From Candidatus Binatia bacterium (lineage in GTDB: Bacteria > Desulfobacterota > Binatia > HRBIN30 > JACQVA1), in assembly GCA_035541895.1 (NCBI GenBank), contig DATKMK010000063.1, positions 140-64,139 on the forward strand: 64,000 nucleotides of DNA. The letters run 5' to 3'. Below the pieces are notes generated by a model that saw only the letters and a program-made list of their open reading frames with translations, was not told the DNA's origin and did not search any database. Positions within the stretch are counted from its first letter, which is position 1. Every line of letters begins with the position of its first letter. Both the position numbers and the translations under genes were made by a program. Of this stretch, positions 12,034 to 64,000 are shown piece after piece.

Positions 12034-12094
12034 GTCACGTGTGGTGCGACGAGAAGTGATCCGCGGTCGTTTGCACCGGCTTGCGGACGGGCGC

Positions 12095-12478
12095 ATGATG
12101 CCGCGCGTGATTCGGCGCCTCGGCCTGACCCTTCCGCTGTTCGTGTGCGTCTTGATGATGCCGGTTGGTCCGGGATGTTCGGACTGTGACCTGCAGATCG
12201 ACACGGCGATGCTCGCCGACGGGACCGTCGGCGCCTCGTATAGCCAAGGGCTGCACTCCGATTGCGGGGGCGACTTCTGGTTTCTTCAAGAGGGCAACCT
12301 GCCGCCAGGGATCGGGCTGTTGGAGCGCGGCGAGCTGCGCGGAACGCCGTCGACTCCCGGCGTGTTTCACTTTACTGTCGGTGTCGTCGATGAAGACAGC
12401 CACGAGACCGCGTTCAAGGGATTCGCTTTGACGGTCAAACCCGGTCCGCCGGCTACCGCATCGCCGTCTGCTTCATGA
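12095..12478 (+). CDS. small putative lipoprotein with an Ig-like (He_PIG-type) domain
   Basis: Signal/lipobox-like LTLPLFVCVLMMPVGPGCS, followed by LPPGIGLLERGELRGTPSTPGVFHFTVGVVD, typical of putative Ig domains. Its 3' end overlaps the convergent amidohydrolase by 26 nt. Confidence 0.5.
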   Translation: MMPRVIRRLGLTLPLFVCVLMMPVGPGCSDCDLQIDTAMLADGTVGASYSQGLHSDCGGDFWFLQEGNLPPGIGLLERGELRGTPSTPGVFHFTVGVVDEDSHETAFKGFALTVKPGPPATASPSAS

Positions 12479-44065: not shown

Positions 44066-44161
44066 CCCGCCCATCCACCGACCGCTTGGTTGGTGCAGCA
44101 TTCCACCGACACAGTGCATCCCTCGTGGTGTCGGCGCTGCTGTGCGCCGGGAGTGTTGTCG

Positions 44162-48358: not shown

Positions 48359-48364
48359 TTCGAT

Positions 48365-48464
48365 CGCGTTATAGCGTTCGCGACCACAAAGCAAAACGGG
48401 CCGCAGCCGACGACGCGCCCGAGCGCGACGTTGCAATCGGTGGCGACGCGTTATAGCGTTCGCG
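48365..48464. promoter_or_regulatory. two perfect 18-bp direct repeats in a divergent promoter region (candidate operator pair)
   Basis: CGCGTTATAGCGTTCGCG occurs at 48365-48382 and again at 48447-48464 (82-nt period). The region lies between the starts of the FAD oxidoreductase (-) and the DUF2298 gene (+). Each copy contains GCGTT-ata-GCGTT. Confidence 0.45.
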
Positions 48465-48505
48465 CGCTCAAATCCAACGGACGAGAACGTCTATTCGCGT
48501 TGCCG

Positions 48506-50656
48506 ATGTGGCCGGTGCTTGCTTGGTGGATGATCGTGGAGGGCCTCGGCATGCTGGCCGTCCCAATCACGTTCAGAATTTTCGCCGCCGATGACCGCGG
48601 ATATCCGTTCGCGAAGATCACCGCGGTTCTGCTGCTGACCTACGTGTCGTGGCTGCTGGCATTCGCCGGCGTCCCCTTTCATCTCGCGCTGACGATTTCG
48701 CTGATCGCCCTGGCGGCGGTGAGCGTGGCCCTCGCGGTGCCGCGCCGCGCTGAGTTGAGTGCCTGGCTGAAGGCCGACGGCCGCGTGCACGTCCTCCGTC
48801 ACATGGGGGTGTGGACCGCGGGCTTCCTGTTCTTCGCCTGGGAGCGCTCGCTCAGTCCCGACATCTTCGGCGCCGAGAAGTACATGGACTTCTCCTTCTT
48901 CAATACTCTCACGCGCACCGACGTGATGCCGCCGCAGGATCCGTGGATGTCGGGCAAGCCGTTCAACTACTACTATTTCGGTTACCTGATGTTTGCCAAC
49001 TTGGCGCGGCTGACGCCCGCCCCCAATCACATCGCCTACAATTTGTGTGTTGCCACCGTCGGCGGACTGGCCGCCGGCGGCATCGTAGCGTTGGCGCTGC
49101 GACTCACGCGGCGCTGGCCGTTCGCCTTGCTGGGCGGCGCCATGGGCGTCGTACTCGGCAACCTCGACGGGTTCTTCCAGGTCTGGGAGAAAAACTCGCT
49201 CACCAACATCGACTATTGGCGCTCGTCGCGCGTCGTCGCCAAAGGCGACACCATCAACGAGTTCCCATTCTTCAGCACGATCCACGGCGATCTGCATCCC
49301 CACTTCATGGTGCTGCCGGTCACGATGCTGCTGCTCGGCCTGTTGCTCGACCCGAAGCTGTTCGCGCCGCGAAATGACGACGACGCGAACTCGTGGTCCG
49401 GCTTGCTGCCGTTCCTGCTGATCGCCTTCGTCCTCGGCGCGATGATCGTGATCTCGACGTGGGAGGCGCCGGTCGCCGCCATGCTCGTGTTTCTCTTGGC
49501 CGGCCGTTTTCAGCCACTATGGCCGCTGCTCGCCCGCGCACGCATCACGTTGGCGCTGCGTCTGCTCGGTGCGCTGATCCTCGGGTATGTCTTCTTTCTG
49601 CCGTTCTACATCGGCTTCGTCGCCCCGACTGTGCCCCCCGGACCCAACGAATTCTGCATCGGACCCGCCTGCATCAAGATCGCCCAGACCTCGCTCGCCG
49701 AGTTTCTCACGGTCTTCGGCGGGCTGCTGTTTGCGCCCGCGATACTGATTGCCGCCAACGCCAGCGTGCAGTTGCCGAACAAACCCGAGGCGCGGCACTT
49801 GCTGATCGCCACCGTGGCGTTCGGTATCGTCGCCGCGGGGCTCGCCGGCAATGCCGTCATTCTGCTGTTGGCGGCGCTCGTCATCGCAGGGCTGGCGTGT
49901 GCGTATGGACCCGACACCACCGGAGACCAACGCACGGGATATCTCTTGCTGACAGCGGCAAGCGTGGCATTGTGGGCGTGCGAGGTGTTTTATCTCAAGG
50001 ACCCGTACGGCGATAAGCTCTATCGGATGAACACCGTGTTCAAGTTGTACTTCCAGGCGTGGATTCTCCTGTCAGTCGCCGCGCCGTGGTCGTTGCAGCA
50101 GTTGCTGGCACGTCGATGGTCATGGGCGCCGGCGCCGCGCGCGATTGCCGCGGCGACGGCCGCGTTGCTGATCGCATCGTGTGCCTATCCGTTCGGCCTC
50201 AGCGTCGGCCGCGCCAACTACGTCGGCCGTAACGGTACCCTCGACGGCAATGCGTACCTCGCCCGCGAGCATCCCGACGACTACGCCGCCATCGATTGGC
50301 TCCGCCGCAACGTATCGGGCCTCCCCGTCCTGCTCGAAGCCAGCGGCGATCCCTACTCGTACTACGCACGGTTCTCCGCCAACACCGGCTTGCCGACGGT
50401 GATGGGTTGGGCGAATCACGAAGGCTTGTGGCGCAGTCATGAAAGCGACGTCGAACGGCGCAAGAGCGACGTGCGAAAGATCTACTCGGCCAACAGCCTG
50501 GACGAAGCCCGCGCGCTCCTCGATCAGTATCACGTCGAATACCTGCTGGTCGGTGACCTCGAGCGAAAAGATTTCCCGACCGGCCTCGACAAGTTCGCCG
50601 CCCTTCCGGTTGCGTTCCGCCAGGGCAATACGATCGTCTACCGCCTGAAGAGTTGA
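48506..50656 (+). CDS. DUF2298 (Chlor_Arch_YYY) polytopic membrane protein
   Basis: AEKYMDFSFFNTL, KPFNYYYFGYL (YYY motif), many TM helices, and a C-terminal soluble part ...GWANHEGLWR...YLLVGDLE. The track ORF part upstream of 48506 is antisense to the FAD oxidoreductase. Confidence 0.85.
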   Translation: MWPVLAWWMIVEGLGMLAVPITFRIFAADDRGYPFAKITAVLLLTYVSWLLAFAGVPFHLALTISLIALAAVSVALAVPRRAELSAWLKADGRVHVLRHMGVWTAGFLFFAWERSLSPDIFGAEKYMDFSFFNTLTRTDVMPPQDPWMSGKPFNYYYFGYLMFANLARLTPAPNHIAYNLCVATVGGLAAGGIVALALRLTRRWPFALLGGAMGVVLGNLDGFFQVWEKNSLTNIDYWRSSRVVAKGDTINEFPFFSTIHGDLHPHFMVLPVTMLLLGLLLDPKLFAPRNDDDANSWSGLLPFLLIAFVLGAMIVISTWEAPVAAMLVFLLAGRFQPLWPLLARARITLALRLLGALILGYVFFLPFYIGFVAPTVPPGPNEFCIGPACIKIAQTSLAEFLTVFGGLLFAPAILIAANASVQLPNKPEARHLLIATVAFGIVAAGLAGNAVILLLAALVIAGLACAYGPDTTGDQRTGYLLLTAASVALWACEVFYLKDPYGDKLYRMNTVFKLYFQAWILLSVAAPWSLQQLLARRWSWAPAPRAIAAATAALLIASCAYPFGLSVGRANYVGRNGTLDGNAYLAREHPDDYAAIDWLRRNVSGLPVLLEASGDPYSYYARFSANTGLPTVMGWANHEGLWRSHESDVERRKSDVRKIYSANSLDEARALLDQYHVEYLLVGDLERKDFPTGLDKFAALPVAFRQGNTIVYRLKS

Positions 50657-51339
50657 CCGCCGATCAGGATTACTACCGGGAGCACGGCATCGAGGATGAT
50701 CGCCTCGCGCTGTGGTATTACGCGCGCGTGGTGCGCCACCTGCGCCCCACGGGCGGCCGGCTGCTCGACTTCGGTTGCGGCACGGGCCATTTGCTCCGGC
50801 GACTCTCCGCGCGCTTCGACGCCTGCGGCTACGACGCCTCGGCGTACGCGCGCAGTCAGGCTCGACTGAACGCACCCGACGCCACCATTCTGGAAGAGTG
50901 GGGCTCGCAGCGCACGCGCAGCTTCGACATCATCGTCGCGCTGCACACCCTCGAACACTTGCGACGGCCACCCGCCGTCATGACGCAGCTCGCGCCACTG
51001 CTCACGCCGGGCGGCGTGTTTCTGTTCGTCGTACCGAATACAAACAGCCTCGGACGGCGACTCAAGCGCGACCGCTGGTTCGCGCACCGCGATGCGCATC
51101 TTCACAGTTTGCTGAGTCGCGGCGAATGGGTCGGTCTGGCGCGCGAAGCCGGCCTCGATGTGCAGTGGGTGTGCGGTGACGGTTGGTGGGACGTGCCGTA
51201 TCTCAGGCTTGTCCCGGCGTCTCTGCAGCGGGCGGTGTTCGGCGTCCCCGCCGCCGTGCAGCTTTTCTGGCCGCGCGCACGACCGTTTCTGCCGCCGGCG
51301 TTCGGGGAGTGCTTGATCGTCTCCGCTATCAGATCGTGA
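50653..51339 (+). CDS. class I SAM-dependent methyltransferase
   Basis: LLDFGCGTGHLLRRL (motif I) ... FDIIVALHTLEHL ... GGVFLFVVPN. The TTG start overlaps the DUF2298 stop (TTGA). Confidence 0.85.
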   Translation: MTADQDYYREHGIEDDRLALWYYARVVRHLRPTGGRLLDFGCGTGHLLRRLSARFDACGYDASAYARSQARLNAPDATILEEWGSQRTRSFDIIVALHTLEHLRRPPAVMTQLAPLLTPGGVFLFVVPNTNSLGRRLKRDRWFAHRDAHLHSLLSRGEWVGLAREAGLDVQWVCGDGWWDVPYLRLVPASLQRAVFGVPAAVQLFWPRARPFLPPAFGECLIVSAIRS

Positions 51340-51433: not shown

Positions 51434-52288
51434 ATGAACCGATTCCGCTCCGTGCTTGTTGGCCTCATGCTTCTGGCCGGTTCGGCGATCCCCGCCCGCG
51501 CCGAGTCCGACGCGCTGGCACTGATCACCGAAACCTGGACCCGCTATCGTAGCGTCAAGAGCGAGCGGGAAGAATGCGAGATTCTCGTCGTCACCGCGCC
51601 CCCGGCGGCGGGCTTCTCGCGGGCGGAAGCCGAAGCGATCGTGCGCGACGGGAAGTCCGGGGTGATTCACAAGCGTGCGGTGCGCCACGTCTTGTATGCG
51701 CCGGACCATCGCGACAAACTGCACCTGTTGTTCTCGCTGCCGGCGGACGACGCCGGTCTCGGCTTTCTGGTGTGGCGGCAGAGCGACTCGGCGCAAGACG
51801 ACATGTGGTTGTTCATGCCGGGCTACCGCGCGGTGCGGCGCATTCCGATGAGCAGCAAGCAACGCCTCGCCGGCACCGACCTGTTGTACGAGGACGTGCG
51901 CGAGTTGGCCGGCGAGCGAACCGATCGGTTCACCTATAAGACCGTTGGCGCCGAAACGGTTGATGGTCGCAGTGCCGACGTGGTGAGTGCTGTCCCCAAG
52001 GCCGACACGGTGACTGCCTACGGCAGCCGCAAGGTGTGGGTCGATACGGAGCGACGCTTTCCACTGAAGGCCGAGTTCTACGACGCCGCCGGCACGTTGT
52101 GGAAAGTGTTGCGTAACAGTGAGATTCACGAGGTCGCCCCAAACGTGTATCGGGCCGACCTCGCCGAGATGCGAGACGTGCAAGCGAACCAGTCGACCGT
52201 ACTCTTGGTCACCAAGCGCAGCATCGGCGCCGAGCTCCCGCCGCAAGTCTTCACCGAAGACTACCTCGTGCATCCGGGCGCCGACTGA
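51434..52288 (+). CDS. LolA-like outer-membrane lipoprotein-sorting family protein (secreted)
   Basis: Signal peptide MNRFRSVLVGLMLLAGSAIPARA/E. ...DDMWLFMPGYRAVRRIPMSSKQRLAGTDLLYEDV... is typical of the LolA_like/DUF1329-related family. Confidence 0.8.
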   Translation: MNRFRSVLVGLMLLAGSAIPARAESDALALITETWTRYRSVKSEREECEILVVTAPPAAGFSRAEAEAIVRDGKSGVIHKRAVRHVLYAPDHRDKLHLLFSLPADDAGLGFLVWRQSDSAQDDMWLFMPGYRAVRRIPMSSKQRLAGTDLLYEDVRELAGERTDRFTYKTVGAETVDGRSADVVSAVPKADTVTAYGSRKVWVDTERRFPLKAEFYDAAGTLWKVLRNSEIHEVAPNVYRADLAEMRDVQANQSTVLLVTKRSIGAELPPQVFTEDYLVHPGAD

Positions 52289-52315
52289 CCGCCGCACGTC
52301 GGAAGCCGTGAACGC

Positions 52316-54880
52316 GTGACCGTCGACATTTTCCGCATGCCGCGCCGCTTTCTGCGCGGCAGCTACGCGCGCCTGACGTTGACCGTGGTCGCGCTCGCGT
52401 GCGGCGTCGCACAGGTGGCGGCGGACGACCTGGTCGGGCGCGAAACTTTGCGGGCATTCGTCGAGATCATCGATACCGTCGCCGGGCGCGCTTCGCTGCA
52501 AGTGACCGCCGGAGAGGGCGTGCCGTTTGCGGACAACGTCGCATCCGCCATTGCCAAGGTGCCGGGCGTCGAGCTGACGGTACCGGTGGTCAGCAGCACG
52601 GCGTTCATGGCCGACGGCAGCGGTGAGTTGCTCACGGTCCACGGCATGGACATCGCCAACGAGAAGGCCGCCGCAGTCTACGAGTTGCGCGACGAAGAGC
52701 GCGGGCTCGACGATCCCAAGTTGTTTCTCGCCGACGCCATCGTGGTTCCGCGCCCCTTCGCCGAGCGCCGCGGCCTGAAGGTGGGTGACGCCTTCACCAT
52801 CGACACCCCGCGCGGGCAGCAGCGCGTGACCGTGCGCGGGATGCTCGACGCCAAGGGCTTGGCGCGCATCTACGGCGGCAACCTGCTGGTGATGGATCTC
52901 GGCAACGCGCAAGACATGTTCGGCCAAGCCGGCTTCGTCAATCGCATCGACGTGGTGGTCGATCGCAACGGCGACGTTCAGCAAGTGGCCCGCGCCGTTG
53001 CGGCCGTGTTACCGGCGGGGTTGCAGGTCGAGGCGCCGGCGCAGCGCAAGGCGGATTTGCAAACCGTGATGCGCTCGTTCCAGGTGCTGCTGTGGGCGCT
53101 CGCGTTGCTCGGATTGATCGGATCGTTTCTGATCGCATTCAACAGTCTGACCACCTTGTTCGAAGGCCGCGCCTGGCAGCTCGGCGTGTTGCGCGCCATC
53201 GGCGTCCGCCCGCGCGTGATGTGGCAGGAGTTGCTGAAGGAAAGCGCGTTGCTGGGCATCGCCGGCGTCGTGTTGGGAATTCCGCTGGGCATCCTGCTCG
53301 CCCGCGTGGTGCTGCCGATGATCACCACGGCGGCGGCGTTGAATTCCAAGGTCGCAACGCCGACGGCGCACTTGGCCGTGCATTGGACGTCGTTGTTGTT
53401 GGCGGCAGGAATGGGACTCGCCGCCGCGCTGCTGGCCGCCGCGCTGCCGGCGTGGCGGGCGACGCGGATGGGCATGGCGCAGACGATGCGCGCGCGCGGC
53501 GTGGAGCAACAAGGCTTGGGCGCCAACGCGCACTACGCCATCCGGGCCCTCATGTTGGCCGTCATCGTCGTCGCGGTGGTGCTCCAATCGGTTACCGGGA
53601 TGGCGTCGTGGGGTCTGTTCGCCACCGGCTTGATCGCAGTGGGGACGGCGCTCGCGGCGCGGCCGACGCTCGAGTTGATCCGGCGGCCGTTGTTGGCCGG
53701 ATTTCGGCTGGTTGCCGGACCGACCGGCGAGTTGGCGATCAAGAATCTCACCCAGAATCCTCGCCGCGCCTCGTTGACCGTCGCGATGCTCGGGGTCGGA
53801 TTGGCGTGCGTCCTGTGGTTGTGGATGGTCGCTCACAGCTTTCAATCGTCGGTGGTCGACGCAGTCAGCGGCGCGATGCGCGCGGATTTGGTTGTCAGCT
53901 CCTCACACATCGAATCGGGCTTCCTCGAAGCGCCGGTCTCGGATTCGCTGGTGGGCGAACTGGCACGCATTCCCGGCGCGACCGTAGTGGTCGGTGAGCG
54001 GGGCGCCGATTGGCAGTACGGTGGCGGGACGATCACCATCGATGCATACGATCCGGCGTACTTCACCAGCCCCGAGTTCGGCCAGTGGCCGTTGGCGGGC
54101 CGCGGGGTGCCGGGTTTGTGGGAAGCGGTGGCGGCTGGCAACGCCGCGGTGGTGTCGAGCAACTTCGCGCGCAACCTGCACACCCAAGTCGGCGACACCA
54201 TCACGCTCGACAGTCCGTCGGGGCCGGTGGCGCTGCGGGTGGTCGGCGTCGTGACCCACTTCGCGTCGCCGCGCGGGACCATCGAGATGAGCCGCGAAGT
54301 CTACCGGCGCATGTGGCGAGACGAGAAGATCACCCGCGCATTCGTGCGCGTCGATCCGAACGCGGATCTCGTCGCGGTCCGCGCCGCGATCGCCCAGCGC
54401 CTGGGGCGCACCTTCAGCTTGCGGATTCTGTCGGCCGCCGAGATTGTCGACTACTTTGCGTCACAGGTCCGCCGCGCATTCGCCGGCGTCTACATCTTGG
54501 CCATGATGGTGCTCGCCGTCGTGCTGGTGGGTATGGCCGACACGCTCGCCGCGGGGGTGATGGAACGCACGCGCGAGATCGGCGCAATTCGCGTCGTCGG
54601 TGTCCGCCGCGGCGCGGTGCGGCGGATGGTCATCATGGAAGGCGTCGTGATGGGGCTGGTCGGGCTCGTGCTCGCCGCCATCGGCGGTCTGACGCTCGGC
54701 CGATTGTGGGTCGACGCCACCTTCCCCGCGTTGCTCGGTTGGGTGCTCGAACCCCATGTGCCCTATGGCCAGGCTGGTACCGTGGCTGCGATCACCGTGC
54801 TGGTGTGCGTCGTCGCCGCGCTGGCGCCGGCGCGCCGTGCCGCGGCACTGGAGCCCGCGGTGGCCTTGCGATACGAGTAG
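52316..54880 (+). CDS. ABC transporter permease with two FtsX modules (MacB/LolCE-like)
   Basis: 854 aa with two 4-TM FtsX-type blocks, each preceded by a large periplasmic domain. GTG start; ATG 52337 is the alternative. Confidence 0.9.
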
Positions 54881-54887
54881 AGCTTGT

Positions 54888-55640
54888 ATGCCCCAGTCTT
54901 CCGCAGTGTATCTCGAAGGCGTCCACAAATGGTACGGCAGCGGCCCGCAAGCGGTCGAGGCGCTGAGCGACATGAACTTGTGCGTCGAGCCGGAAGAATT
55001 CGTCAGCATCGTCGGGCCGAGCGGATGCGGCAAGAGCACGCTGCTGAATCTGATTGCCGGCATCGATACGCCCACGCGCGGACGGGTCTGGGTCGCTGGA
55101 CACGATCTCGCGCAACTGACCGACGATGCGCGCAGCGATCTGCGCCTGCGCCACATCGGCTTCGTGTTCCAAAGCTTCAATCTCTTCCCCACGTTCACGG
55201 CGGAAGAGAACGTGACGTGGCCGCTGGAATTCCTCGGCGTGCACTGGCGTGAAGCGCGCGCCCGCGCCGACGCCGCCCTGGCCGAGGTCGGACTCAACGA
55301 CGGCGCACGGCGCCGGCGGCCGGCCGCGCTGTCGGGCGGCGAGCAGCAACGCGTCGCCATCGCACGCGCGTTGGTCACCAAGCCGCGCCTGTTGGTTGCC
55401 GATGAGCCGACCGGCAACCTCGATTCCCGCACCGGTCAATCGATCTTGGATCTCATGCAGATGCTGAACCGCACCCAGCATCTGACGATCGTATTGGTGA
55501 CGCACAGTGCGGTGGCGGCGGCGCACGGGCATCGCATCATTGAATTGTCGGACGGCCGCATCCTACGTGAGACCCGCCCAAGCCTCGATGCGGCGGCGGC
55601 CGATCGCTGGGAAGATCCCGCGACAAAGGAGGTCGGATGA
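54888..55640 (+). CDS. ABC transporter ATP-binding protein (MacB/LolD-type)
   Basis: Walker [13 protein letters not shown], signature [15 protein letters not shown], Walker [13 protein letters not shown]. Confidence 0.93.
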
Positions 55641-57046
55641 ACCGCACGACGATTCTGGCCATCGGCGTGATCGTAGGCGCCGGCATCGCCCTCAGCGGCT
55701 GCGGGAGCGACAATGACGAGACCCCCACGGCCCCGACCGCCACCAAGGCAGCGACGGTGGCACCGACCCTCTCGCCGACCACCGGTCCGACGCGCACCGC
55801 CAGTCCGTCGGCCACCGTGGCGCCAACGAATACCGCCTTGCCGCCACCGACGTTGACTCAGACGCCGGTGGACACGCCGTCGCCCGCCCCGACCGCGACC
55901 GACACCTCAACGGCGACACCGAGCGAGACGCCCTCTGCCTCGGCAACGGCAACAACAACGCCGACTCAAACGGTCACTGTGACCCGAACGATCACTTTGA
56001 GTCCAACCATCACGCTGACGCCCACGGTTACGGCAACGCCCACGGCGACCAACACGCTCGGGCCGCTGGGGATTCGCCATTTCGTTCTCGACTCGACCCA
56101 GAGCTCCTTCACAGTCAAAATCTCCGGCGGCCTTGAGATCCCAGTCGGTTTCTTCCGCGGTCAAACCAACGGCCAGGACGAGCCGGCGTTCCTCGACCTG
56201 GAAGCCGGTCAGCCCGACGCGAACGGCTTCGTCCGCGTGAACATCGTCGCGGCATCGGAATACCTTTACGTCGATTCCAAACAGTTGGCGGGCTTCGTCT
56301 TCTGTCTCAAACCCCTGGTGCCCGTCATGTCGGCGGGGATCCTCGGCTGCAACGGCGGAACCGACGTCAGTATCTCGCTCAATCAGGACCATCACATCGG
56401 CCAACTCGGCGTCAACGGCTTCACTACAACCAACTGCACCGCGATGCAGGGACACGTTGAAACGCCCTACGCCGCCTGCAGCGCCGGCCTGGTTGGCCAG
56501 GCTTGCGACGTCGATGGCGATTGCGACACCACGCCCGGCGCTGGCGACGGCACCTGCGCACATGTTCCGGCGGCCTGCACCACCGGCATGGTCGGCAAGG
56601 TGTGCCAAACGAACGCGGACTGCAACCAAGGGACGACCGCCGGGCACTGCGGCTTTCACGGCGGTGTCTGCAACGGCCCGCTGGTGCCCGGCTTGGGAAC
56701 CGGGGACTCCGGACCGGGAGAACTATTCATCGCGCCGAATCCGGATCCCAACGTCTTGACCAACGGGATGCCGGTCGAACTCGGATTTGAAAACGCGCTG
56801 CCGTGCGGCGACGAAGGACCGGGCATGCCGTCGCCCTTTGCGCTCACCACCGGCCACTCCAGTTCGTTGGTGACGGACGCCAACAACATGCTCGGTCACA
56901 CCCTCAACTTCGACACTCAGGGCGAAAACTTCGACTGCTACAACTGGCAGAGCAACGACAAAGGCCGGCTGGTGCTGAGTGCGCCGGCGATCGACCAGCG
57001 CACGGTCGGCGACGTGGCAACGATCTTCAACTTCTTCTCGCACTGA
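55637..57046 (+). CDS. lipoprotein with ~113-aa Pro/Thr/Ala/Ser-rich linker and Cys-rich C-terminal domain of unknown family
   Basis: AAGGAGG RBS and ATGA overlap with the ATPase stop. Lipobox IALSGC. Low-complexity linker at about 55718-56056. Duplicated motif AGLVGQACDVDGDCD / TGMVGKVCQTNADCN. Confidence 0.8.
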   Translation: MNRTTILAIGVIVGAGIALSGCGSDNDETPTAPTATKAATVAPTLSPTTGPTRTASPSATVAPTNTALPPPTLTQTPVDTPSPAPTATDTSTATPSETPSASATATTTPTQTVTVTRTITLSPTITLTPTVTATPTATNTLGPLGIRHFVLDSTQSSFTVKISGGLEIPVGFFRGQTNGQDEPAFLDLEAGQPDANGFVRVNIVAASEYLYVDSKQLAGFVFCLKPLVPVMSAGILGCNGGTDVSISLNQDHHIGQLGVNGFTTTNCTAMQGHVETPYAACSAGLVGQACDVDGDCDTTPGAGDGTCAHVPAACTTGMVGKVCQTNADCNQGTTAGHCGFHGGVCNGPLVPGLGTGDSGPGELFIAPNPDPNVLTNGMPVELGFENALPCGDEGPGMPSPFALTTGHSSSLVTDANNMLGHTLNFDTQGENFDCYNWQSNDKGRLVLSAPAIDQRTVGDVATIFNFFSH

Positions 57047-57115
57047 GGAGCGGTCGGGGAAGGGCTTGCAGCAAAACGGCGAGCGACTACGTCACAGAGA
57101 GGCAGTAGCACAACG

Positions 57116-58111
57116 ATGCGCCAACCTTTGAACGTCTTTGCAGGTTGCCGGCGATCGATTTTCACTCTCGCCATCGTCGCCTGCGTGCTTGCAACCGCGA
57201 ACATCCCGCACGCATGGGCGGCCGGCGCGACCCAGGAAGCGCTGCTCGACGTGCTGTTCGGAAACGCACCGGATCCCGGCGGACTCGACGCCAACGACGA
57301 CGGCGTCCTGTCGATCGCCGATATTCTCTTGCTTCCCGCGGCGCCGCCACTCACGCCGACGCCGACCCGCACGCGGACTGCGACGGTCGCGGTCCCGACC
57401 GCAACCAATACACAACCGACTGTGACGCCGACCCTGACCCAGACGGTCACGCTTACGCCGACGCCGTCGCCTACCGCAACACCGGTTGGCTTGCTTTACG
57501 ACGGAACGATCTCGAATTTAACGCCCCACGACGTCGGGGACATGCTGATCTATCGCGTCACCGACCCGACCGGACATGTTACGACCGAAACGACGACCAT
57601 CCCATCGAACGATCCGGGCAGCGGCGCATTCGTGCTCGACGATCTCCAGACCGACGGCCAGCAGGTGATCGTCCACGAGATGCAGTCGTACAGTGACACC
57701 GGCACGCAACTGTTGTTCAACGGCTACACGGATCTGGTTGCCAACGTTCGGACGACCTGCACCCCGCCGCTGCTGCGGCTCACGTCCCCGCTCATCGCCG
57801 GGCAGACCTTTTCGACTACGATCAAGTGCGAGGTGCGGTTTTCCGACTCCGGTGTCTTCGTGGGCTTCGTCAATCGCACCGACACGGTGACGCCGCAGGA
57901 TATCGTCGCGAGCGTCACCGTTCCAGCCGGCACGTACAGCACCGTCATTCATCTCAGCGGCAGCACCAACCAAGGCGGCGAACTGGAGAACGACGAGTTT
58001 TACATCGTCCCGGGGATCGGGCCCATCCTGCAACTGCAAACGTTCACGGGACAGACGACCCGGCACGAGCTGGTCGACGGTACCATCGGCGGCATGTCGG
58101 TGAAGCGGTAG
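57116..58111 (+). CDS. secreted protein with a single dockerin/EF-hand-like loop, Pro/Thr linker and unknown beta-rich domain
   Basis: Signal-like IFTLAIVACVLATANIPHAWA/AG. DANDDGVLSIADILLL (57287-57334), then PLTPTPTRTRTATVAVPTATNTQPTVTPTLTQTVTLTPTPSPTATP. Confidence 0.75.
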   Translation: MRQPLNVFAGCRRSIFTLAIVACVLATANIPHAWAAGATQEALLDVLFGNAPDPGGLDANDDGVLSIADILLLPAAPPLTPTPTRTRTATVAVPTATNTQPTVTPTLTQTVTLTPTPSPTATPVGLLYDGTISNLTPHDVGDMLIYRVTDPTGHVTTETTTIPSNDPGSGAFVLDDLQTDGQQVIVHEMQSYSDTGTQLLFNGYTDLVANVRTTCTPPLLRLTSPLIAGQTFSTTIKCEVRFSDSGVFVGFVNRTDTVTPQDIVASVTVPAGTYSTVIHLSGSTNQGGELENDEFYIVPGIGPILQLQTFTGQTTRHELVDGTIGGMSVKR

Positions 58112-58135
58112 TCGCATCCTACTTCACGATTGAGC

Positions 58136-59431
58136 ATGCCGTCGCGACTTCCTCCACCGTCGGCCGTGGTCGTGTTCTTCGCGCTCGCGGTGCTTGCGGC
58201 AGGCGCCGCAAGCGCGACGCCCCCGACCATCAACGGGCACGTGCAATACGAGACCTTCGGCTATCCCGATCCGGACACGACCGGAGAGCGCTGGGAAAAC
58301 TTCTTCGCTGCGACCCTACGTGCCCACGGCGAGATCAGCCCAGAGCTTACGTGGCAGTTCGAGGGCCGGGCGGTGGCGGACGACGTCGCCTTTACCGCCG
58401 GGGGGTACTCGCTTCGCAACGCAACCCGCCGGCGCCCCTACCTGTCGCTCATTACCGCCGTGCTCGACTACCGCCCGTCGGAGAATCTGCGCGTAAGCGT
58501 CGGCAACCAAGTCGTCAGTTGGAGCATCTTCGACGAGTTGCAGCCGGCCAACTTAATGTCGCCGCGAGACGAGTCCGACCCGTTTCGCCGCATCGATCAA
58601 GGCGTCCCGAGCGTGGCAGCGCACTATGGCAGCGGCGGCGCGTTTGCCGAGCTGGTGGTCGTCCCGCTCGCGTTCACGCCGTCGCGTCTCCCGCAAGGCC
58701 GTTGGGACATCATCCGCAACGAGAATGTGATTCGCCCGCAGGACCAACCGCCGGTGCAACTGGATGAAACGCAAGCCGGTGCGCGCATCGGCGCGCACCT
58801 CGGCCAGCTCGAAGCGACCGTGATCGGTTACGTCGGCCGCGATACCGAGGCCGTGTTCGTCCCCGGCCCGCTCGTGCTGGTCGGCTTCAAGAACGGTCGC
58901 CCGCAGTTCAAAGCGCAGATCATCGATCGCTATCCGCAGTTGCGCGCGGGCGGCGTGACGGCTTCCTATCCGTTCGGCGACCGCGTAATCATGCGAGTGG
59001 AGTCGGTCTACTACAACAGCCCCGATCGCTTCCGTGACGACTTGCTTCAAAGCGTCGCCGGCGTCGAGTACGCCCTCGACGACTGGCGCATCGTCGCCAG
59101 CTACCTGCGTGACGATCAGATCATCGCCGCACCGGAGGAAGTCACGAACAAAGGCGAGCGGCAATTTTTCCAAAGTTTCATCTTCGGTGAGATCCGTTAC
59201 GATGCCGGTGGACGATTGCGTGGACGACTGCGGGGCGGGTATGACGCCACCGGCGACTTCAGCTTGCTCCAATCCGAGCTGTCGTATCGCGTCTGGCAAA
59301 CGGTGTGGATCTCCTTGCTCGGCGAGCAGGTCGACGCCGGCAAACGCTCGTACGAAGACAACAAGACCTCCTACTTCGACACCATCAGCCACGAGGACCG
59401 CCTAGGGACACGCATCGAGTACGACTTCTGA
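58136..59431 (+). CDS. putative outer-membrane beta-barrel protein (DUF1302-like?)
   Basis: Signal peptide VVVFFALAVLAAGAASA/T. Alternating hydrophobic beta-strand pattern. C-terminal ...GTRIEYDF ends in an aromatic residue. The family call is tentative. Confidence 0.65.
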   Translation: MPSRLPPPSAVVVFFALAVLAAGAASATPPTINGHVQYETFGYPDPDTTGERWENFFAATLRAHGEISPELTWQFEGRAVADDVAFTAGGYSLRNATRRRPYLSLITAVLDYRPSENLRVSVGNQVVSWSIFDELQPANLMSPRDESDPFRRIDQGVPSVAAHYGSGGAFAELVVVPLAFTPSRLPQGRWDIIRNENVIRPQDQPPVQLDETQAGARIGAHLGQLEATVIGYVGRDTEAVFVPGPLVLVGFKNGRPQFKAQIIDRYPQLRAGGVTASYPFGDRVIMRVESVYYNSPDRFRDDLLQSVAGVEYALDDWRIVASYLRDDQIIAAPEEVTNKGERQFFQSFIFGEIRYDAGGRLRGRLRGGYDATGDFSLLQSELSYRVWQTVWISLLGEQVDAGKRSYEDNKTSYFDTISHEDRLGTRIEYDF

Positions 59432-59454
59432 ATGCAGCCGAGTTGTCACGAGAG

Positions 59455-60585
59455 ATGTCCACGACACAACCACAGGCGATTTTGCTGACCGGTGTCACCG
59501 GATTCCTCGGGCGGCACCTGCTGTGGGATTGCTTGCGCCGCGACGCCAACGTGACGGTCTATTGTCTGCTGCGTCCAGAGAACCACCGCAGCGCCGAAGA
59601 GCGCCTCGCGGCGCTGATCGCTCGACATCGCGACGTGCTGCCGGACGGCGCGTCCGCGCGTTGCCATGCGGTGTCGGGCGACATCGCCATGCCCGATCTC
59701 GGCCTTGATCCGCGAGCTCGCGAGCGGCTGCTCGGCGAGGTCGATCGCATCGTGCATTGCGCCGCCACGGTCGAGTTCGATACGCCGCTAGCCGAATCCC
59801 GGCGCATCAACGTCGGCGGGACGCAGCAGGTGTTGCACCTCGCCGACGAGCTGCTGGCCCGCGGGCGGCTCGGCCGCGTTGATTACTTCAGCACCGCCTT
59901 CGTTGCCGGCAAGAGCATCGGTCGAGCCTACGAAGACCGATTGATCCCCGCGTCCTTCAACAACACCTACGAACAAACGAAGTGGGAGGCCGAACAACTC
60001 GTCCGCGCGGCGCAGCCACGGCTGCCGATCACCATCTACCGTCCCAGCATCATCGTCGGCGATTCGAAAACCGGATACACGTCGAATTTTCGCGTCCTCT
60101 ACTGGCCACTCAAGGCACTCGCGACCGGCCTGATCATCGCGGTGCCCGCCGATCCGAACGGCGTCGTCGACGTCGTGCCAATCGACCATGTCGTCGGTGC
60201 ATTCGCGGCCCTCAGCAGGAGCGAGCAGACGTTGGGCAAATGCTATCACCTCGCCGCGGGTGTCGACCGGCAGAGCTCGTTCGGCGAACTGCTGCAATTG
60301 ACTTCCGCCTTCTTCGGTGTGCGGGCGCCCTGGACGATTCCGCCGCAGATCTCCTATCGCCTGGTGCGTCCGGTGTTGTACGCCACCGTCTGGGGGAAGC
60401 GGCGCGAGCTGCTGCGCGTCGGGGAAATGTATTTTCCGTACTTCAGCTATCGGGCGTCGTTCGATCGCACCACGGCGCGTGCGGACCTCGACGGCACCGG
60501 CATCGACCCTCCGGCGGTCGCTGACTACTTCCACGCGATCATGCAGTACTGCGTCGACACGGACTGGGGACGCGCGCAGGGATGA
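59455..60585 (+). CDS. SDR-family thioester/fatty-acyl reductase-like protein (NAD_binding_4 type)
   Basis: ILLTGVTGFLGRHLL (TGxxGxxG), VHCAATVEF and YEQTK (YxxxK). Confidence 0.85.
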   Translation: MSTTQPQAILLTGVTGFLGRHLLWDCLRRDANVTVYCLLRPENHRSAEERLAALIARHRDVLPDGASARCHAVSGDIAMPDLGLDPRARERLLGEVDRIVHCAATVEFDTPLAESRRINVGGTQQVLHLADELLARGRLGRVDYFSTAFVAGKSIGRAYEDRLIPASFNNTYEQTKWEAEQLVRAAQPRLPITIYRPSIIVGDSKTGYTSNFRVLYWPLKALATGLIIAVPADPNGVVDVVPIDHVVGAFAALSRSEQTLGKCYHLAAGVDRQSSFGELLQLTSAFFGVRAPWTIPPQISYRLVRPVLYATVWGKRRELLRVGEMYFPYFSYRASFDRTTARADLDGTGIDPPAVADYFHAIMQYCVDTDWGRAQG

Positions 60586-61535
60586 TACAACGGCTGGCCG
60601 ACGATCGTCCGCACGTCGGGGTCCCGCGCGTGGACGAACGGACCTTGTGGTTGGCGTACAACGCCTCGGACGTGACCTTCCGCGTCCTGCGAGCCTTCGG
60701 GTGGGGGCCGATGCTCAACCTCGGGTACTATCCGTTCGGCCAGCCCTTCACGCTGCTGAACTTTCTGATTTCGACCCATTGGTTTCCGCCGTTCTTCCGG
60801 CTGCCGGCGGCGCAGTTGAGCCTGATCAAGCGGGCGATCGCGTTGTTGCCGTTGCACGACGGCCGGCGCGTTCTCGATGTCGGCTGCGGCCGCGGCATGA
60901 GTTCTTACCTCATGGCCAATACCTTTCCGCATCTCGACGTGAGCGGCGTGGATCTGCTCGCCGACCACGTCGCGATTGCACAAACGCTCTTCAGCAACAC
61001 GCCGAATCTGCAGTTCATCCGCGGCGACGCGATGAACCTCGACTTTCCCGACCGCTCGTTCGACCGCGCTCTGTGCGTGGAGGCGGCATTCCAGTTCCCC
61101 GACCGCGGGCGTTTTCTCAGCGAACTCGGTCGCGTGGTCGCGCCGGGTGGGCGGGCGGTGATCGTCGACTTCATGTGGGAAAACGACGACGCGCGCGTCC
61201 GCTGCGACGCCGACGCGCTGCAGGTGGTGCGTGCAACCTGGCAGTTGCGTGACTTCGATTCCGTCGGCCAGTATCGACGCAACGCCGAGACCAACGGCTT
61301 CACGATCGACGCCTGCCTCGATTGGTCCTCGCACGTGACCGCGCCGATCATCACGATCTTCGGCATCGTCGGGGGGCTGGCACGGCGGTCCTGGGGCCGC
61401 GCCTTCTTGCGACGCTTCAACCCGCTGCTGCGTCCCATCAGCGACCTCGATTGGGCGAAGTTCGTGCAGTCGGCTCGCGCCCATCAACGCGTGCACGGCT
61501 GCGCCAAATACATGGTGTTGGTCCTAACCCGCTGA
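60582..61535 (+). CDS. class I SAM-dependent methyltransferase
   Basis: VLDVGCGRGMSS (motif I) ... FIRGDAMNLDFPDRSFDRALCVEA ... GGRAVIVDF. ATGA overlap with the reductase stop. Confidence 0.85.
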   Translation: MIQRLADDRPHVGVPRVDERTLWLAYNASDVTFRVLRAFGWGPMLNLGYYPFGQPFTLLNFLISTHWFPPFFRLPAAQLSLIKRAIALLPLHDGRRVLDVGCGRGMSSYLMANTFPHLDVSGVDLLADHVAIAQTLFSNTPNLQFIRGDAMNLDFPDRSFDRALCVEAAFQFPDRGRFLSELGRVVAPGGRAVIVDFMWENDDARVRCDADALQVVRATWQLRDFDSVGQYRRNAETNGFTIDACLDWSSHVTAPIITIFGIVGGLARRSWGRAFLRRFNPLLRPISDLDWAKFVQSARAHQRVHGCAKYMVLVLTR

Positions 61536-61583: not shown

Positions 61584-61720
61584 TCGGGTTTCAACGAGGC
61601 CGAAAAATCGGCGGCGAAACGCGCCCTGAAGGGTGCGGCTACAGTCCTGCAGTATTGGGGGTCCCGATACCGCGTCGGCTCGTTGCAATGCCGATCAAAT
61701 CCAGGTAGCGGCAGACGGCT

Positions 61721-64000
61721 ATGGCGGAGCAGAAGGGCTGGTTCGGGCGGCCGTCGGCCTGGATCCTCGCGGTGGTGGTGTTTGCGGGGCTGGTGCGGTG
61801 CAGCTTCGTCAGTTGGGACCAACATCACTTCTTTCACCCCGACGAGCGCGCGATCGCCGAGGCGGTGCAGCGCATCTCGCTCGGTTGGTCCGACTTCCGT
61901 CTCGACCCCAAATTCTTCGCCTACGGATCGCTGCCGTTCTATCTGACCCGCGCGGTGGTGGACGCGCTCGCGCACGTCGCGCCGCACCTCGCCAGCTACG
62001 ATGGCATCATCGCCACCGGCCGCGTGGTGAGCGGCGTCGCGGGTACCTTGACGGTGGTGGTGTTGATCCTCCTCGGCGCGCGCCTCTACAATCTGTCGGT
62101 CGGTATCCTCGCCGGATTCCTGCTGGCCGCCTGTCCGTTGCACGTTCAAAACTCGCACTTCATGGCCACCGACATCGCGCTGACCCTGGCGGTGCTGGTG
62201 GCGTTGTTCGCGCAAATCAATCTGGTCCGTAGCGGCCGACTACTCGACGCGGTATGGGTCGGCGTCACGTTGGGCATCGCGTTGGCGTGCAAATTCAGCG
62301 CGCTGCCGCTGCTCGCGCCGCTCGCGGTCACGTTGGCGATTCGTGCGCGCACCGACGGGTTCGGTCGCATCGCACTGTATGCTCCGCTGATCTTGTTGAT
62401 CGCCGTCGGCGTGTTCGCGATCGGCGAGCCCTATGCCTTCGCCACCTTCAATCCGATCGCGTTGGTCACGCTGTTCGTGCAAGCCATGCCGCGCGCGCTG
62501 GCGGTGATTCGCAGCACCGATCCCGAGCTGCACGGAGTACGCGGCGCGGTTGAAGTCCTGTTTCGCGCGATCAGTGCGCCGGCGTACGCGAGCTCGATCC
62601 TCGAGCAGAGTCACATGGTGTCGAATGCGGGCCTGCTGCCCTACACCAATCAGTACGTCGGCACGCCGAAGTACGGCTACGAGCTGACGCAAATCGTCCT
62701 GTGGTGCATGGCGCCGCCGCTCGGCCTCGCCGCGGTGTGGGCGACGGGACGGCGCGCGGTCAATTTCTGGCGCGAGCGGTCGGAGGAAATCGTCCTGCTC
62801 GCGTGGGTGGTGCCGTTCTTCCTCGTCAGCGGCTGGTTCGAGGTCAAGTTCATCCGCTATCTCTTGCCGATCTACCCGATCATGATTCTCTTTGCGGCCG
62901 AATGGCTCGTGCGCCTGCGCGCGCGCGGCGGGATGGTGGGGCGCGTGCTGTCGCTGATCGTCACGGTGGGCACGCTGCTCGCGCTGTTCGCGTTCATGTC
63001 GATCTACGCCCGACCGCACACGGTCGTGTCGGCGTCGGAGTGGGTCTACAAGTTCGTCCCCACCGGCAGCAAGATTCTGTCGCAAGATTGGGACGAAGGC
63101 TTCCCGTTCTCGTTTCCGGGCATGGGACCGGAGCGCTACAAGATCACCAACTTCGGCTACTACGAGCCCGACAATCCCACCAAGATACGCAAGCTCGCCG
63201 GCCATCTCGCCGAGAGCGACTACATCGCGTTTCAAACCAAACGGCTGTACGGCGCGCTGACGCAAGCGGCGCAGAAGTATCCGCTCAGCAGCAACTATTT
63301 CTATCTCTTGTTCGCGGGTGACCTCGGCTACACGCTGGTGCACGAGGAGGCATCGCGCCCGAGCGTGTTCGGCATCGAATTCCCCGACGAACTCGCCGAC
63401 GAGTCGTTCACCGTCTACGACCACCCGAAGGTGCTGATCTTCCGCAACGACGGGCGGCTGAGCGCCGACGCGTTGTACGACAAGATCATGAACGGCCTGC
63501 CGTCACGGCCGATGACGCGCAGCGATCTGCTGCGCGCGCGCCCGGGCGCCGAGGTCGGCGGCGCGCTCCGTCCGCCGATTCGTTCGAGCCTGCTGGCGAC
63601 GCTGACGTTCGCGCTGCTCGTCGAGGTCCTCGGGCTGGCGGTCTACGCGCTCGGCGGCGGGTGGCTGATGGGCGCGAGTCCGTACGCCTTGGCGAAGATC
63701 ATCGGCGTGCTGCTGTTCGCGTATGTCCCGTGGGTGCTCGTGCATCTCGGGCAAGTGGAATTCTCCCGCGCCACGTTGGCGGTGTGGGCGTTGGTGCTCG
63801 GCGGCATCGGTGCCGCGGCCGCGCTCCGCACGCGCCGGCGCGCCACCGAATGGGACGTGTCGCCGGCACGCGGGCGCGAGATCGCCGCCACCGAGATCCT
63901 CTTCTGGGGGACGTTCGTCTTCTTCCTGCTCGTCCGAGCCTTCAATCCCGAAGTGTACTGGGGCGAGAAGCCGATGGACTTCTCGTTCCTCAACATCTTG
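61721..64000 (+). CDS. PMT_2/ArnT-like GT-C glycosyltransferase fused to a DUF2298 (YYY) domain; 3' end outside the window
   Basis: Manual translation is open from ATG 61721 to the window end, so it is absent from the ORF track. MAEQKGWFGRPSAWILAVVVFAG...FFHPDERAI (loop-1 DE)...YGSLPFYL...HVQNSHFMATD...ACKFSALP. From about 63590 it parallels the N-terminus of the 48506 protein (YALAKIIGVLLFAYVPWVL; NPEVYWGEKPMDFSFLN). Confidence 0.85.
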   Translation, partial: MAEQKGWFGRPSAWILAVVVFAGLVRCSFVSWDQHHFFHPDERAIAEAVQRISLGWSDFRLDPKFFAYGSLPFYLTRAVVDALAHVAPHLASYDGIIATGRVVSGVAGTLTVVVLILLGARLYNLSVGILAGFLLAACPLHVQNSHFMATDIALTLAVLVALFAQINLVRSGRLLDAVWVGVTLGIALACKFSALPLLAPLAVTLAIRARTDGFGRIALYAPLILLIAVGVFAIGEPYAFATFNPIALVTLFVQAMPRALAVIRSTDPELHGVRGAVEVLFRAISAPAYASSILEQSHMVSNAGLLPYTNQYVGTPKYGYELTQIVLWCMAPPLGLAAVWATGRRAVNFWRERSEEIVLLAWVVPFFLVSGWFEVKFIRYLLPIYPIMILFAAEWLVRLRARGGMVGRVLSLIVTVGTLLALFAFMSIYARPHTVVSASEWVYKFVPTGSKILSQDWDEGFPFSFPGMGPERYKITNFGYYEPDNPTKIRKLAGHLAESDYIAFQTKRLYGALTQAAQKYPLSSNYFYLLFAGDLGYTLVHEEASRPSVFGIEFPDELADESFTVYDHPKVLIFRNDGRLSADALYDKIMNGLPSRPMTRSDLLRARPGAEVGGALRPPIRSSLLATLTFALLVEVLGLAVYALGGGWLMGASPYALAKIIGVLLFAYVPWVLVHLGQVEFSRATLAVWALVLGGIGAAAALRTRRRATEWDVSPARGREIAATEILFWGTFVFFLLVRAFNPEVYWGEKPMDFSFLNIL

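Follow-up and report, generated by a model that had tools for sequence, protein, structure and literature searches.

We analysed a stretch of 64,000 nucleotides (nt) from a Candidatus Binatia bacterium (contig DATKMK010000063.1, assembly GCA_035541895.1; hereafter the window) and found eight close-packed genes on its + strand (51434-61535). These genes encode a LolA-like protein (G1), a permease (G2) and an ATPase (G3) of an ATP-binding cassette (ABC) transporter, a tethered lipoprotein (G4), a secreted protein (G5), a predicted outer-membrane beta-barrel (G6), a thioester reductase (G7) and a methyltransferase (G8). Judged by its sequence relationships, the cluster is an ABC-powered variant of a known, poorly understood kind of system in which a DUF1302 barrel is encoded with a DUF1329/LolA-like protein, probably for moving hydrophobic molecules across the envelope. 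With modest confidence, we favour a role in carrying a hydrophobic small molecule or lipid out across the envelope at the expense of ATP, with a MacB/FtsX ABC transporter in place of a resistance-nodulation-division (RND) pump of the HAE3/MMPL type. An earlier reading made from the letters of the window (the sequence-only reading) had described a unit of six co-directional genes with tiny gaps, forming an inner-to-outer-membrane module. The coordinates, gaps, domains and motifs that it gave for the six genes were all confirmed, and the co-directional unit was found to run on through G7 and G8.

The window genes were mapped by tblastn and hidden Markov model searches in 36 loci from genomes and metagenomes. 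The results showed that the barrel, the LolA-like protein and a pump stay linked in Binatia and in lineages further off, which supports the inner-to-outer-membrane module of the sequence-only reading. The LolA-like gene lay at most 6.3 kb from the barrel gene in 10 of the 11 distinct loci with enough flank, the exception being L003. The co-directional order G1-G2-G3-G4-G5-G6-G7 of the window recurred exactly in a metagenome contig (L018). The common arrangement was a G4-G5-G6-(G7)-(G8) block convergent with G3-G2-G1 (L002, L005, L006, L013, L019 and L021), and a divergent arrangement was found in L001. In L011, L025, L026 and L030, of which the first three are distant loci, G1 stood beside the barrel gene or within about 1.1 kb of it, adjoining it directly in L011, L025 and L030. 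The barrel/LolA-like linkage was kept down to 46-50% barrel identity and through at least four different arrangements, and a linkage that outlasts rearrangement to this depth speaks for one functional system with a shared function.

The conserved linkage also largely refutes the idea that an ABC/LolA-like unit (G1-G3) has come by chance to lie next to a separate G4-G8 cluster, which we consider very improbable. The two blocks are convergent, on opposite strands, in most relatives, and L003 has no G1-G3 within 10 kb, as such an accident would allow. However, the persistence of the linkage through these arrangements, the LolA-like gene adjoining the barrel gene in L011, L025 and L030 and lying close to it in L016, and the DUF1302-DUF1329 pairing known independently from other work (PMC13499233; bioRxiv 10.1101/072470) all speak against it.

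The pump proved to be the exchangeable part. In the outgroup locus L016, genes were found for TetR, a 4HBT thioesterase, three MMPL/RND pumps, a DUF1302 barrel and, 287 nt from the barrel gene, a PF17131 protein 38% identical to G1. Inside the clade that carries G5 and G6, L036 encodes a G5-like protein, the barrel and an 824-amino-acid (aa) MMPL protein scoring above the Pfam cutoff, followed by the LolA-like gene. Because these two loci have an RND pump, whereas the window and its close relatives have a MacB-type ABC transporter, the energiser is interchangeable around the same outer module. In another relative (the Binatia locus L007, 3724-11395, - strand), tandem duplicate genes for the LolA-like protein and an 850-aa permease were found with one ATPase gene near the barrel gene, and the pump there may be duplicated or heteromeric.

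The cluster proteins were scanned against Pfam and NCBIfam, with curated or gathering cutoffs as thresholds. Direct scans found no match for G6, and a Pfam scan of all 39 G6 homologues gave weak porin-type matches only. A G6 profile search of 1.8 billion representatives returned 743 relatives, among which the nearest outgroup barrels (E from 2e-33 down to ~1e-20) passed the Pfam DUF1302 cutoff, with PF06980 scores of 38.9, 35.4, 34.7, 32.6 and 29.5 bits (cutoff 23.2); DUF1302 was matched by 8 of the 16 outgroup relatives. When the G6 family was aligned with the outgroup set by hhalign, the two matched over 383 columns (probability 100%, E 4.6e-55) and had in common the motifs GKQI-x-SWG…NP-x-D and FTPSRLP…RW. 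Since the outgroup relatives pass the cutoff and the profile alignment is full-length, we place G6 in the DUF1302 superfamily, where its homology marks it as a divergent, shortened branch. The AlphaFold2 model, built from the 39 homologues, was all-beta with about 18-20 strands (predicted local distance difference test score, pLDDT, 88.9; predicted template-modelling score 0.82). Foldseek matched the model to generic porin and AlgE barrels (E ~1e-10, template-modelling (TM) score ~0.5, 10% identity), and the protein ends in …RIEYDF, with the …EYDF signal, all of which supports the beta-barrel proposed earlier for this gene. G6 is identical to a hypothetical protein from a Candidatus Binatia metagenome-assembled genome. 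Five distant barrel relatives (P0253, P0272, P0284, P0285 and P0299) are 600-1240 aa long, with a C-terminal barrel and long N-terminal extensions, which hold tetratricopeptide repeats (TPR) in P0253 and a double zinc ribbon in P0285.

The Pfam matches of G1-G3 agreed with the LolA-like protein, double-FtsX permease and ATPase named by the sequence-only reading. G1 matched LolA_like PF17131 (1.7e-42, 145.6 bits, cutoff 30) and DUF1329 PF07044 (7e-18, 65.4 bits, cutoff 23.1); these and MucB_RseB were its only significant Pfam matches, and canonical LolA PF03548 was not among them. Its signal peptide is of the signal-peptidase-I type (…PARA/ES) without a lipobox cysteine, and its closest solved relative is Porphyromonas gingivalis LolA3 (9tp6, 3e-20). 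G2 has about ten hydrophobic segments and two FtsX and two MacB_PCD stretches (Pfam FtsX 1.2e-28, MacB_PCD 5e-27), the two MacB_PCD domains being periplasmic. The solved type VII permeases YtrF, MacB, LolF and LolC matched it distantly (1e-8 to 1e-5), LolC and LolF at just 1e-5 to 1e-6; G2 scored 88.7 bits against the cutoff of 362 for NCBIfam TIGR02212 (lolCE) and fell far under the cutoff for ADOP. G3 matched Pfam ABC_tran (5e-39) and came close to LolD TIGR02211 (1e-63, 214.9 bits, cutoff 307.75) and YbbA (1.4e-62, under the curated cutoff), reaching no equivalog cutoff. With FtsX and MacB_PCD in G2 and ABC_tran in G3, the pair has the domains of a type VII (MacB/FtsX) ABC transporter.

The sequence-only reading could match the combination to no described system, and here it has to be corrected: a DUF1302-superfamily barrel with a DUF1329/PF17131 protein is the outer-membrane/periplasmic pair of AmeABCD-type systems (PMC6394551; bioRxiv 10.1101/072470), whose usual pump is an HAE3/MMPL RND protein. 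AmeABCD, made up of DUF1302, DUF1329, COG4447 and HAE3 RND proteins, makes Castellaniella tolerant of monoterpenes and able to expel dyes (PMC6394551). In several Proteobacteria, the DUF1302, DUF1329, BNR and RND genes show cofitness (bioRxiv 10.1101/072470), and DUF1302/DUF1329 genes have fatty-ester phenotypes in Pseudomonas putida (bioRxiv 10.1101/2020.07.04.188060). Examples of the type are found in Castellaniella defragrans, in Shewanella (Sama_1588-1591) and in Pseudomonas (PP_0765/0766 with PP_2018/2019). DUF1302 has been described as an 18-strand barrel with a TM score of 0.55 to AlgE, and a DUF1302-DUF1329 complex has been predicted with an interface score (ipTM) of 0.84 (PMC13499233).

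Like these systems, the window encodes a DUF1302-superfamily barrel and a periplasmic DUF1329/LolA-like protein together with an inner-membrane pump. The G6 model has a similar strand count and AlgE-like Foldseek neighbours (TM score ~0.5; compare PMC13499233), and L016 and L036, relatives of the window family, still use an MMPL/RND pump. The window differs in that its pump is an ATP-driven MacB/FtsX ABC transporter rather than an RND pump driven by the proton-motive force; the Pfam scan found no MMPL/RND (HAE3, COG1033) gene in the cluster. It also adds G4 and G5, the latter with a YmcC-like barrel and a calcium loop, and its G6 is ~430 aa long, compared with ~550-600 aa, and too divergent for a direct PF06980 match. 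Domain scans found no COG4447/BNR (Ycf48-like) propeller among G1-G8, G5 being modelled as a 12-strand soluble barrel.

Beyond the gene set, the protein folds, the family relationships, the conserved linkage and the exchange of pumps, which the analysis shows, we infer the direction of transport, the protein-protein contacts and the cargo of the export that we favour as follows. G2 and G3 would sit in the inner membrane, where ATP hydrolysis would move the two periplasmic MacB_PCD domains (mechanotransmission) and so expel a hydrophobic substrate, taken either from the periplasm or from the inner membrane's outer face. Soluble G1 would shield the substrate across the periplasm or dock on the barrel, and the DUF1302-type barrel G6 would pass the substrate into or through the outer membrane. 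G5, flexibly tethered and bearing a calcium loop, would be a barrel-associated accessory, perhaps a second holder of the hydrophobic ligand or a plug, and G4 would be a tethered, disulfide-rich accessory of one clade. The likely role of G7 and G8 would be to make or tailor the cargo, such as a methylated lipid derived from a fatty aldehyde or alcohol.

A narrower form of this scheme, which we put forward only tentatively, is a so far undescribed, ATP-driven export, to the outer membrane or the cell surface, of an endogenous reduced, methylated acyl lipid made by G7 and G8, which would pass from the ABC transporter to the LolA-like carrier and the DUF1302 barrel and be received by G5. G7 matched Pfam NAD_binding_4 (9.5e-63), TIGR01746 (2.5e-46) and the MxaA reductase domain in the PDB (3e-34). 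Its gene lay 16-111 nt 3' of the barrel gene in 10 loci (L002, L003, L004, L006, L012, L013, L018, L019, L023 and L032), and it is a probable cargo-making or cargo-modifying enzyme. G8 matched Methyltransf_25/11 (~1e-19) and CMAS (8e-7), with a weak, sub-threshold likeness to the fatty-acid O-methyltransferase Mtf2 and a phthiocerol dimycocerosate (PDIM) methyltransferase. It was kept beside the barrel gene or G7 in L002, L005, L013, L019, L021, L032 and L034. Both G7 and G8 are tailoring enzymes of a lipid type.

The same proteins might instead bring in or handle hydrophobic compounds used for growth, for instance alkanes, terpenes or fatty esters: the barrel and the LolA-like protein would take the compound up at the outer membrane, and the ABC transporter would act as a detoxifying efflux valve or in substrate handover. 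DUF1302/DUF1329 genes do lie in phenanthrene, p-cresol, steroid and monoterpene catabolic islands and have fatty-ester phenotypes (bioRxiv 10.1101/072470; 10.1101/2020.07.04.188060; PMC6394551), and TetR and thioesterase genes lie in the L016 neighbourhood. However, no catabolic genes flank the window cluster, whose neighbours encode a thioester reductase, methyltransferases and DUF2298 proteins, and type VII ABC and HAE3 RND transporters are known as exporters or extractors, not importers (PMC5985334). We regard uptake as quite unlikely.

The export scheme gives a place to G5, which was a constant partner of the barrel on its upstream side. G5 lay directly upstream of the barrel gene in every locus with upstream flank and a barrel identity of at least 55%, and also in four distant loci (L008, L025, L026 and L028; 48-51%); it was missing in L001/L009, L011 and L027. 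No Pfam or NCBIfam match was found for G5, and neither sequence nor profile searches of the PDB gave anything meaningful for G4 or G5. In an alignment of 34 homologues (A2), G5 was laid out as a signal peptide, a calcium loop, a Pro/Thr linker and a C-terminal domain of ~210 aa. The signal peptide ends at a conserved AxA signal-peptidase-I site. The helix-loop-helix that follows carries a D-x-N-x-D-G…D motif equivalent to half a dockerin or one EF-hand, and D58, N60 and D62 of the loop (D58-N60-D62…D69) are invariant, in agreement with the secreted protein with a dockerin-like loop read from the letters alone. The linker varies in length and is missing from some homologues, and the C-terminal domain has two invariant cysteines.

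The AlphaFold2 model of the G5 C-terminal domain was a 12-strand, all-beta soluble barrel (pLDDT ~97). Foldseek matched it to two Bacteroidales structures of the 'YmcC-like fold' (4fvs, 3e-6; 3fzx, 1e-5; TM score ~0.58), followed by DUF1849, Escherichia coli YmcC and nitrobindins, with LolA, LolB and LprG matching weakly. Closed soluble barrels often enclose hydrophobic ligands. The model of G5 resembles such barrels, several of which bind hydrophobic ligands, and this suggests that G5 may hold one too. No function for the YmcC-like neighbours came out of the literature on TP0789/PF17131 or on the gene surroundings of BF2203, BDI_3050 and PG1178-80. By eye, about two-thirds of the G5 homologues have a cysteine within the signal peptide, at an L-[LV]-A-C-like position ahead of the AxA site (window 57116-57220; alignment A2 columns ~55-75), and some G5 proteins might be lipoproteins. 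Unlike the AxA site, this cysteine is not conserved among the 34 homologues. A common origin of G4 and G5 was considered and rejected: hhalign similarity was confined to the linker/dockerin region and did not extend to the C-terminal domains.

G4 was conserved less widely. As the sequence-only reading had noted, the protein has an LSGC lipobox and a Pro/Thr-rich tether; the lipobox is A-L-S-G-C22, the tether is 114 residues long (54% Pro+Thr), and the domain behind it (~330 aa) has 14 cysteines in repeated C-x4-DCD-x5-GDG-x-C modules. G4 has 87 homologues and no Pfam or NCBIfam match. The N-termini of the family took two forms, either a lipobox with a Pro/Thr tether or a signal peptide with a double dockerin-like module, equivalent to an EF-hand pair, and a linker. 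The second form was found in the in-cluster orthologue of L035 (P0095, 4340-5794), with G5 and the beginning of the barrel gene behind it. This alternation of anchors implies that the dockerin-like module is another route of attachment to the cell envelope in Binatia, in which lipid anchors seem to be exchangeable for Pro/Thr tethers and for calcium modules of the dockerin-like type. Distant G4 paralogues (42% and 34% identity) lay behind a LytTR two-component system or an extracytoplasmic function (ECF) sigma/anti-sigma pair, with no barrel nearby. Within the clusters, G4 was limited to the clade with about 66% barrel identity or more, and it was absent from six loci (L006, L007, L008, L025, L026 and L028) that retain the genes for the barrel, for G5 and for either the LolA-like protein or the ABC transporter. 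From this distribution, G4 is best described as a putative clade-restricted accessory.

A further observation concerns lipoproteins next to distant relatives of the barrel. In L009, from a 7-Mb metagenome-assembled genome labelled 'delta proteobacterium', a Cys-rich secreted protein and then a lipoprotein (LVGC, Pro/Thr/Ala tether) are encoded 3' of the barrel gene (11278-13150, + strand), neither with detectable kinship to G4 or G5. Further 3' lie genes for a 914-aa protein with a long Pro/Thr linker and for a WD40 propeller. Tethered lipoproteins beside this barrel family may be a recurring theme.

These data bear on the possibility that the cluster sorts or displays lipoproteins in a Lol- or Slam-like manner, with G2 and G3 extracting acylated G4 (perhaps also G5), G1 carrying it and G6 inserting or exposing it. 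The canonical lipobox and long tether of G4, its start codon overlapping the ATPase stop, the membership of G2, G3 and G1 in the LolCE, LolD and LolA superfamilies, the L-L-A-C-like cysteine in many G5 homologues and the Pro/Thr-tethered lipoprotein just 3' of the barrel in distant L009 would all fit it, and a similar proposal has been made for Borrelia BBJ23-29 (PMC13078400). The anchor of G4, however, is not conserved: the L035 orthologue has a signal peptide and a dockerin-like module and no lipobox, and because this module replaces the lipid anchor inside the cluster, G4 is unlikely to be a Lol-type cargo. G4 is also absent from the six loci that retain the barrel and G5, its paralogues occur in unrelated neighbourhoods, and in G5 the AxA site is conserved and the signal-peptide cysteine is not. 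In addition, L016 and L036 pair the outer module with MMPL/RND pumps, a type not known for lipoprotein extraction, the equivalog thresholds for LolCE and LolD were missed by wide margins, and LolA3, the nearest solved relative of G1, does not pair with LolB (PMC13103446). The non-conserved anchor, the absence of G4 from distant loci and the service of RND pumps weaken the Lol-like reading, and we judge it rather unlikely. The sequence-only reading had offered G4 and G5 as cargo or partners; that they are cargo is unlikely, given the AxA site of G5 and the anchor, distribution and paralogues of G4.

Compared with LolCDE-LolA-LolB, the window likewise combines a type VII permease and ATPase with a LolA-superfamily periplasmic protein and, as proposed here, would move a hydrophobic moiety from the inner to the outer membrane. 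It differs in that G2 is a single fused 854-aa double unit, whereas LolC + LolE or LolF serve there, that G2 and G3 stay below the NCBIfam LolCE and LolD thresholds, and that G1 belongs to PF17131 and not to LolA PF03548. The window also has a large beta-barrel as outer-membrane partner and no LolB-like lipoprotein, and a lipoprotein cargo does not appear to be conserved, the G4 lipobox being swapped in P0095 and G4 being absent in distant loci. A Slam-like assignment was rejected: G6 has no DUF560 or TPR match, and its ~18-20 strands compare with the 14 of the DUF560 barrel of Slam, which also has a TPR N-domain and is encoded beside the surface lipoprotein that is its substrate.

The idea of a MacB-like ABC transporter working with a LolA-like protein and a barrel has already been published for Borrelia, with another barrel family. 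The BBJ23-29 cluster, a computational proposal, encodes an Omp85-family barrel, a MacB-like ABC transporter and a LolA-like protein (PMC13078400). Like the window, it holds the three together in one cluster, the LolA-like-fold protein being annotated as an 'outer membrane lipoprotein-sorting protein'. In contrast, the Borrelia barrel is Omp85/BamA-like rather than DUF1302-like, the permease is a four-transmembrane homodimer rather than a fused double unit such as G2, and TPR proteins stand in place of G4 and G5. With MacAB-TolC the window shares the FtsX transmembrane fold, the MacB_PCD periplasmic domains and, presumably, mechanotransmission. It differs in having its nucleotide-binding domain (G3) as a separate polypeptide and a LolA-like protein and a porin-like barrel where MacAB-TolC has an adaptor and a duct. 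Domain scans found no HlyD, MFP or OEP domain in the cluster products, and G6 matched porin and AlgE structures, not TolC. A MacAB-TolC-like reading was rejected because no MacA-type adaptor or TolC-type duct is encoded.

Two further systems have LolA-like proteins of comparable context. In the P. gingivalis PG1175-81 operon, the gene for LolA3, the best solved relative of G1, stands together with genes for an MMPL pump, ABC ATPases and TetR (PMC10434189). For LolA2/LolB2 of the flexirubin locus of Flavobacterium, as LolA-like proteins in a pigment or lipid locus, the proposed cargo is a non-protein hydrophobe (PMC11885536). Unlike the window, neither has been reported with a DUF1302-type barrel.

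Several points weigh against the export reading. L003 has the G4-G7 genes, but G1-G3 do not occur within 10 kb of them. L005 and L007 lack G7, and several loci lack G8, so the link between cargo and enzyme is not universal. The membership of G6 in the DUF1302 superfamily, as supported by transitive and profile-profile homology, holds at the superfamily level and is not a direct family match; G6 and its 38 close homologues gave no PF06980 match even at E≤1. G4 and G5 could be substrates rather than parts. Finally, we know of no substrate for any DUF1302/DUF1329 system and of no proof of what the LolA-like partner does in them.

The coding evidence for the cluster was consistent. The spacings from G1 to G8 are, in order, 27, 7, -4, 69, 18, 23 and -4 nt. 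As stated by the sequence-only reading, an ATGA overlap joins the G3 stop to the G4 start, and AAAGGAGG sits just 5' of G4; the start of G8 overlaps the stop of G7 by 4 nt. GC content at third codon positions was 0.80-0.87 in all eight genes, which fits real coding sequence in a genome of 65% GC, and each of G1-G6 has dozens of conserved homologues, which shows that they are not chance open reading frames. A promoter and terminator scan of 50.5-62.5 kb found no excess of sites over shuffled sequence and says nothing about operon boundaries. Taken against the claims made from the letters, the barrel of G6 is predicted, the order of the six genes is kept in a related contig, and neither G4 nor G5 fell into a characterised family unrelated to the envelope.

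Table 1. Genes of the cluster and its flanks in the window
Feature	Position	Strand	Description
G1	51434-52288	+	Periplasmic LolA-like protein, PF17131/DUF1329
G2	52316-54880	+	854-aa fused double FtsX/MacB-type (type VII ABC) permease
G3	54888-55640	+	ABC ATPase, LolD/YbbA/FtsE/MacB nucleotide-binding domain group
G4	55637-57046	+	Lipoprotein, Pro/Thr tether, Cys-rich domain; putative clade-restricted accessory
G5	57116-58111	+	Secreted; calcium loop, Pro/Thr linker, predicted YmcC-like soluble beta-barrel domain
G6	58136-59431 (alternative TTG start 58130)	+	Predicted outer-membrane beta-barrel, divergent DUF1302 superfamily
G7	59455-60585	+	Stand-alone thioester/acyl reductase (NAD_binding_4)
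G8	60582-61535	+	S-adenosylmethionine-dependent methyltransferase
Multihaem cytochrome	44090-46885	+	931 aa, secreted
FAD/amine-oxidase	46916-48436	-	506 aa, phytoene-desaturase-like
DUF2298 / chlor_Arch_YYY-type protein	48449-50656	+	Large membrane protein (GT-C-like), 5' flank of cluster
Methyltransferase	50653-51339		5' of G1
DUF2298 / chlor_Arch_YYY-type protein	61718-64000, runs off window end	+	Large membrane protein (GT-C-like), 3' flank of cluster

The cluster is bordered on both sides by genes for large DUF2298 proteins. These were considered as core parts of the system and rejected, since the only match to the query in the related loci was L033, the window's own sequence. The FAD/amine-oxidase gene lies between the first DUF2298 gene and that of the cytochrome. 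The cytochrome has about nine CxxCH motifs, with matches to MtrC/MtrF domains II/IV and cytochrome c7, and it also carries a Big_9/cadherin-like domain, Pro/Thr linkers and a dockerin-like DCDGNG…DCNHNG module. Its domains suggest extracellular electron transfer hardware built with the tether and dockerin architecture of G4 and G5.

DUF1302/DUF1329 systems are widespread, with examples from Pseudomonas and Shewanella as well as from hydrocarbon degraders and ESKAPE pathogens. To our knowledge, they have no known substrate, structure or mechanism despite their clear phenotypes. The coupling of one outer module to either an MMPL/RND pump or a MacB-type ABC transporter indicates that the barrel and the LolA-like protein form a self-contained outer half that accepts different energisers, and this constrains the mechanisms possible for the family. 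The cluster adds a new constant partner with a YmcC-like fold (G5), the thioester reductase and methyltransferase linked to it suggest a class of cargo that can be tested, and it illustrates the biology of the cell envelope in Binatia, an uncultured phylum. If the lipid-export reading is true, the exchange of an RND pump for an ABC transporter would be the first mechanistic handle on the DUF1302/DUF1329 family, and such a route would form a small-molecule counterpart to Lol or Lpt. Its confirmation would open the family to mechanistic study.

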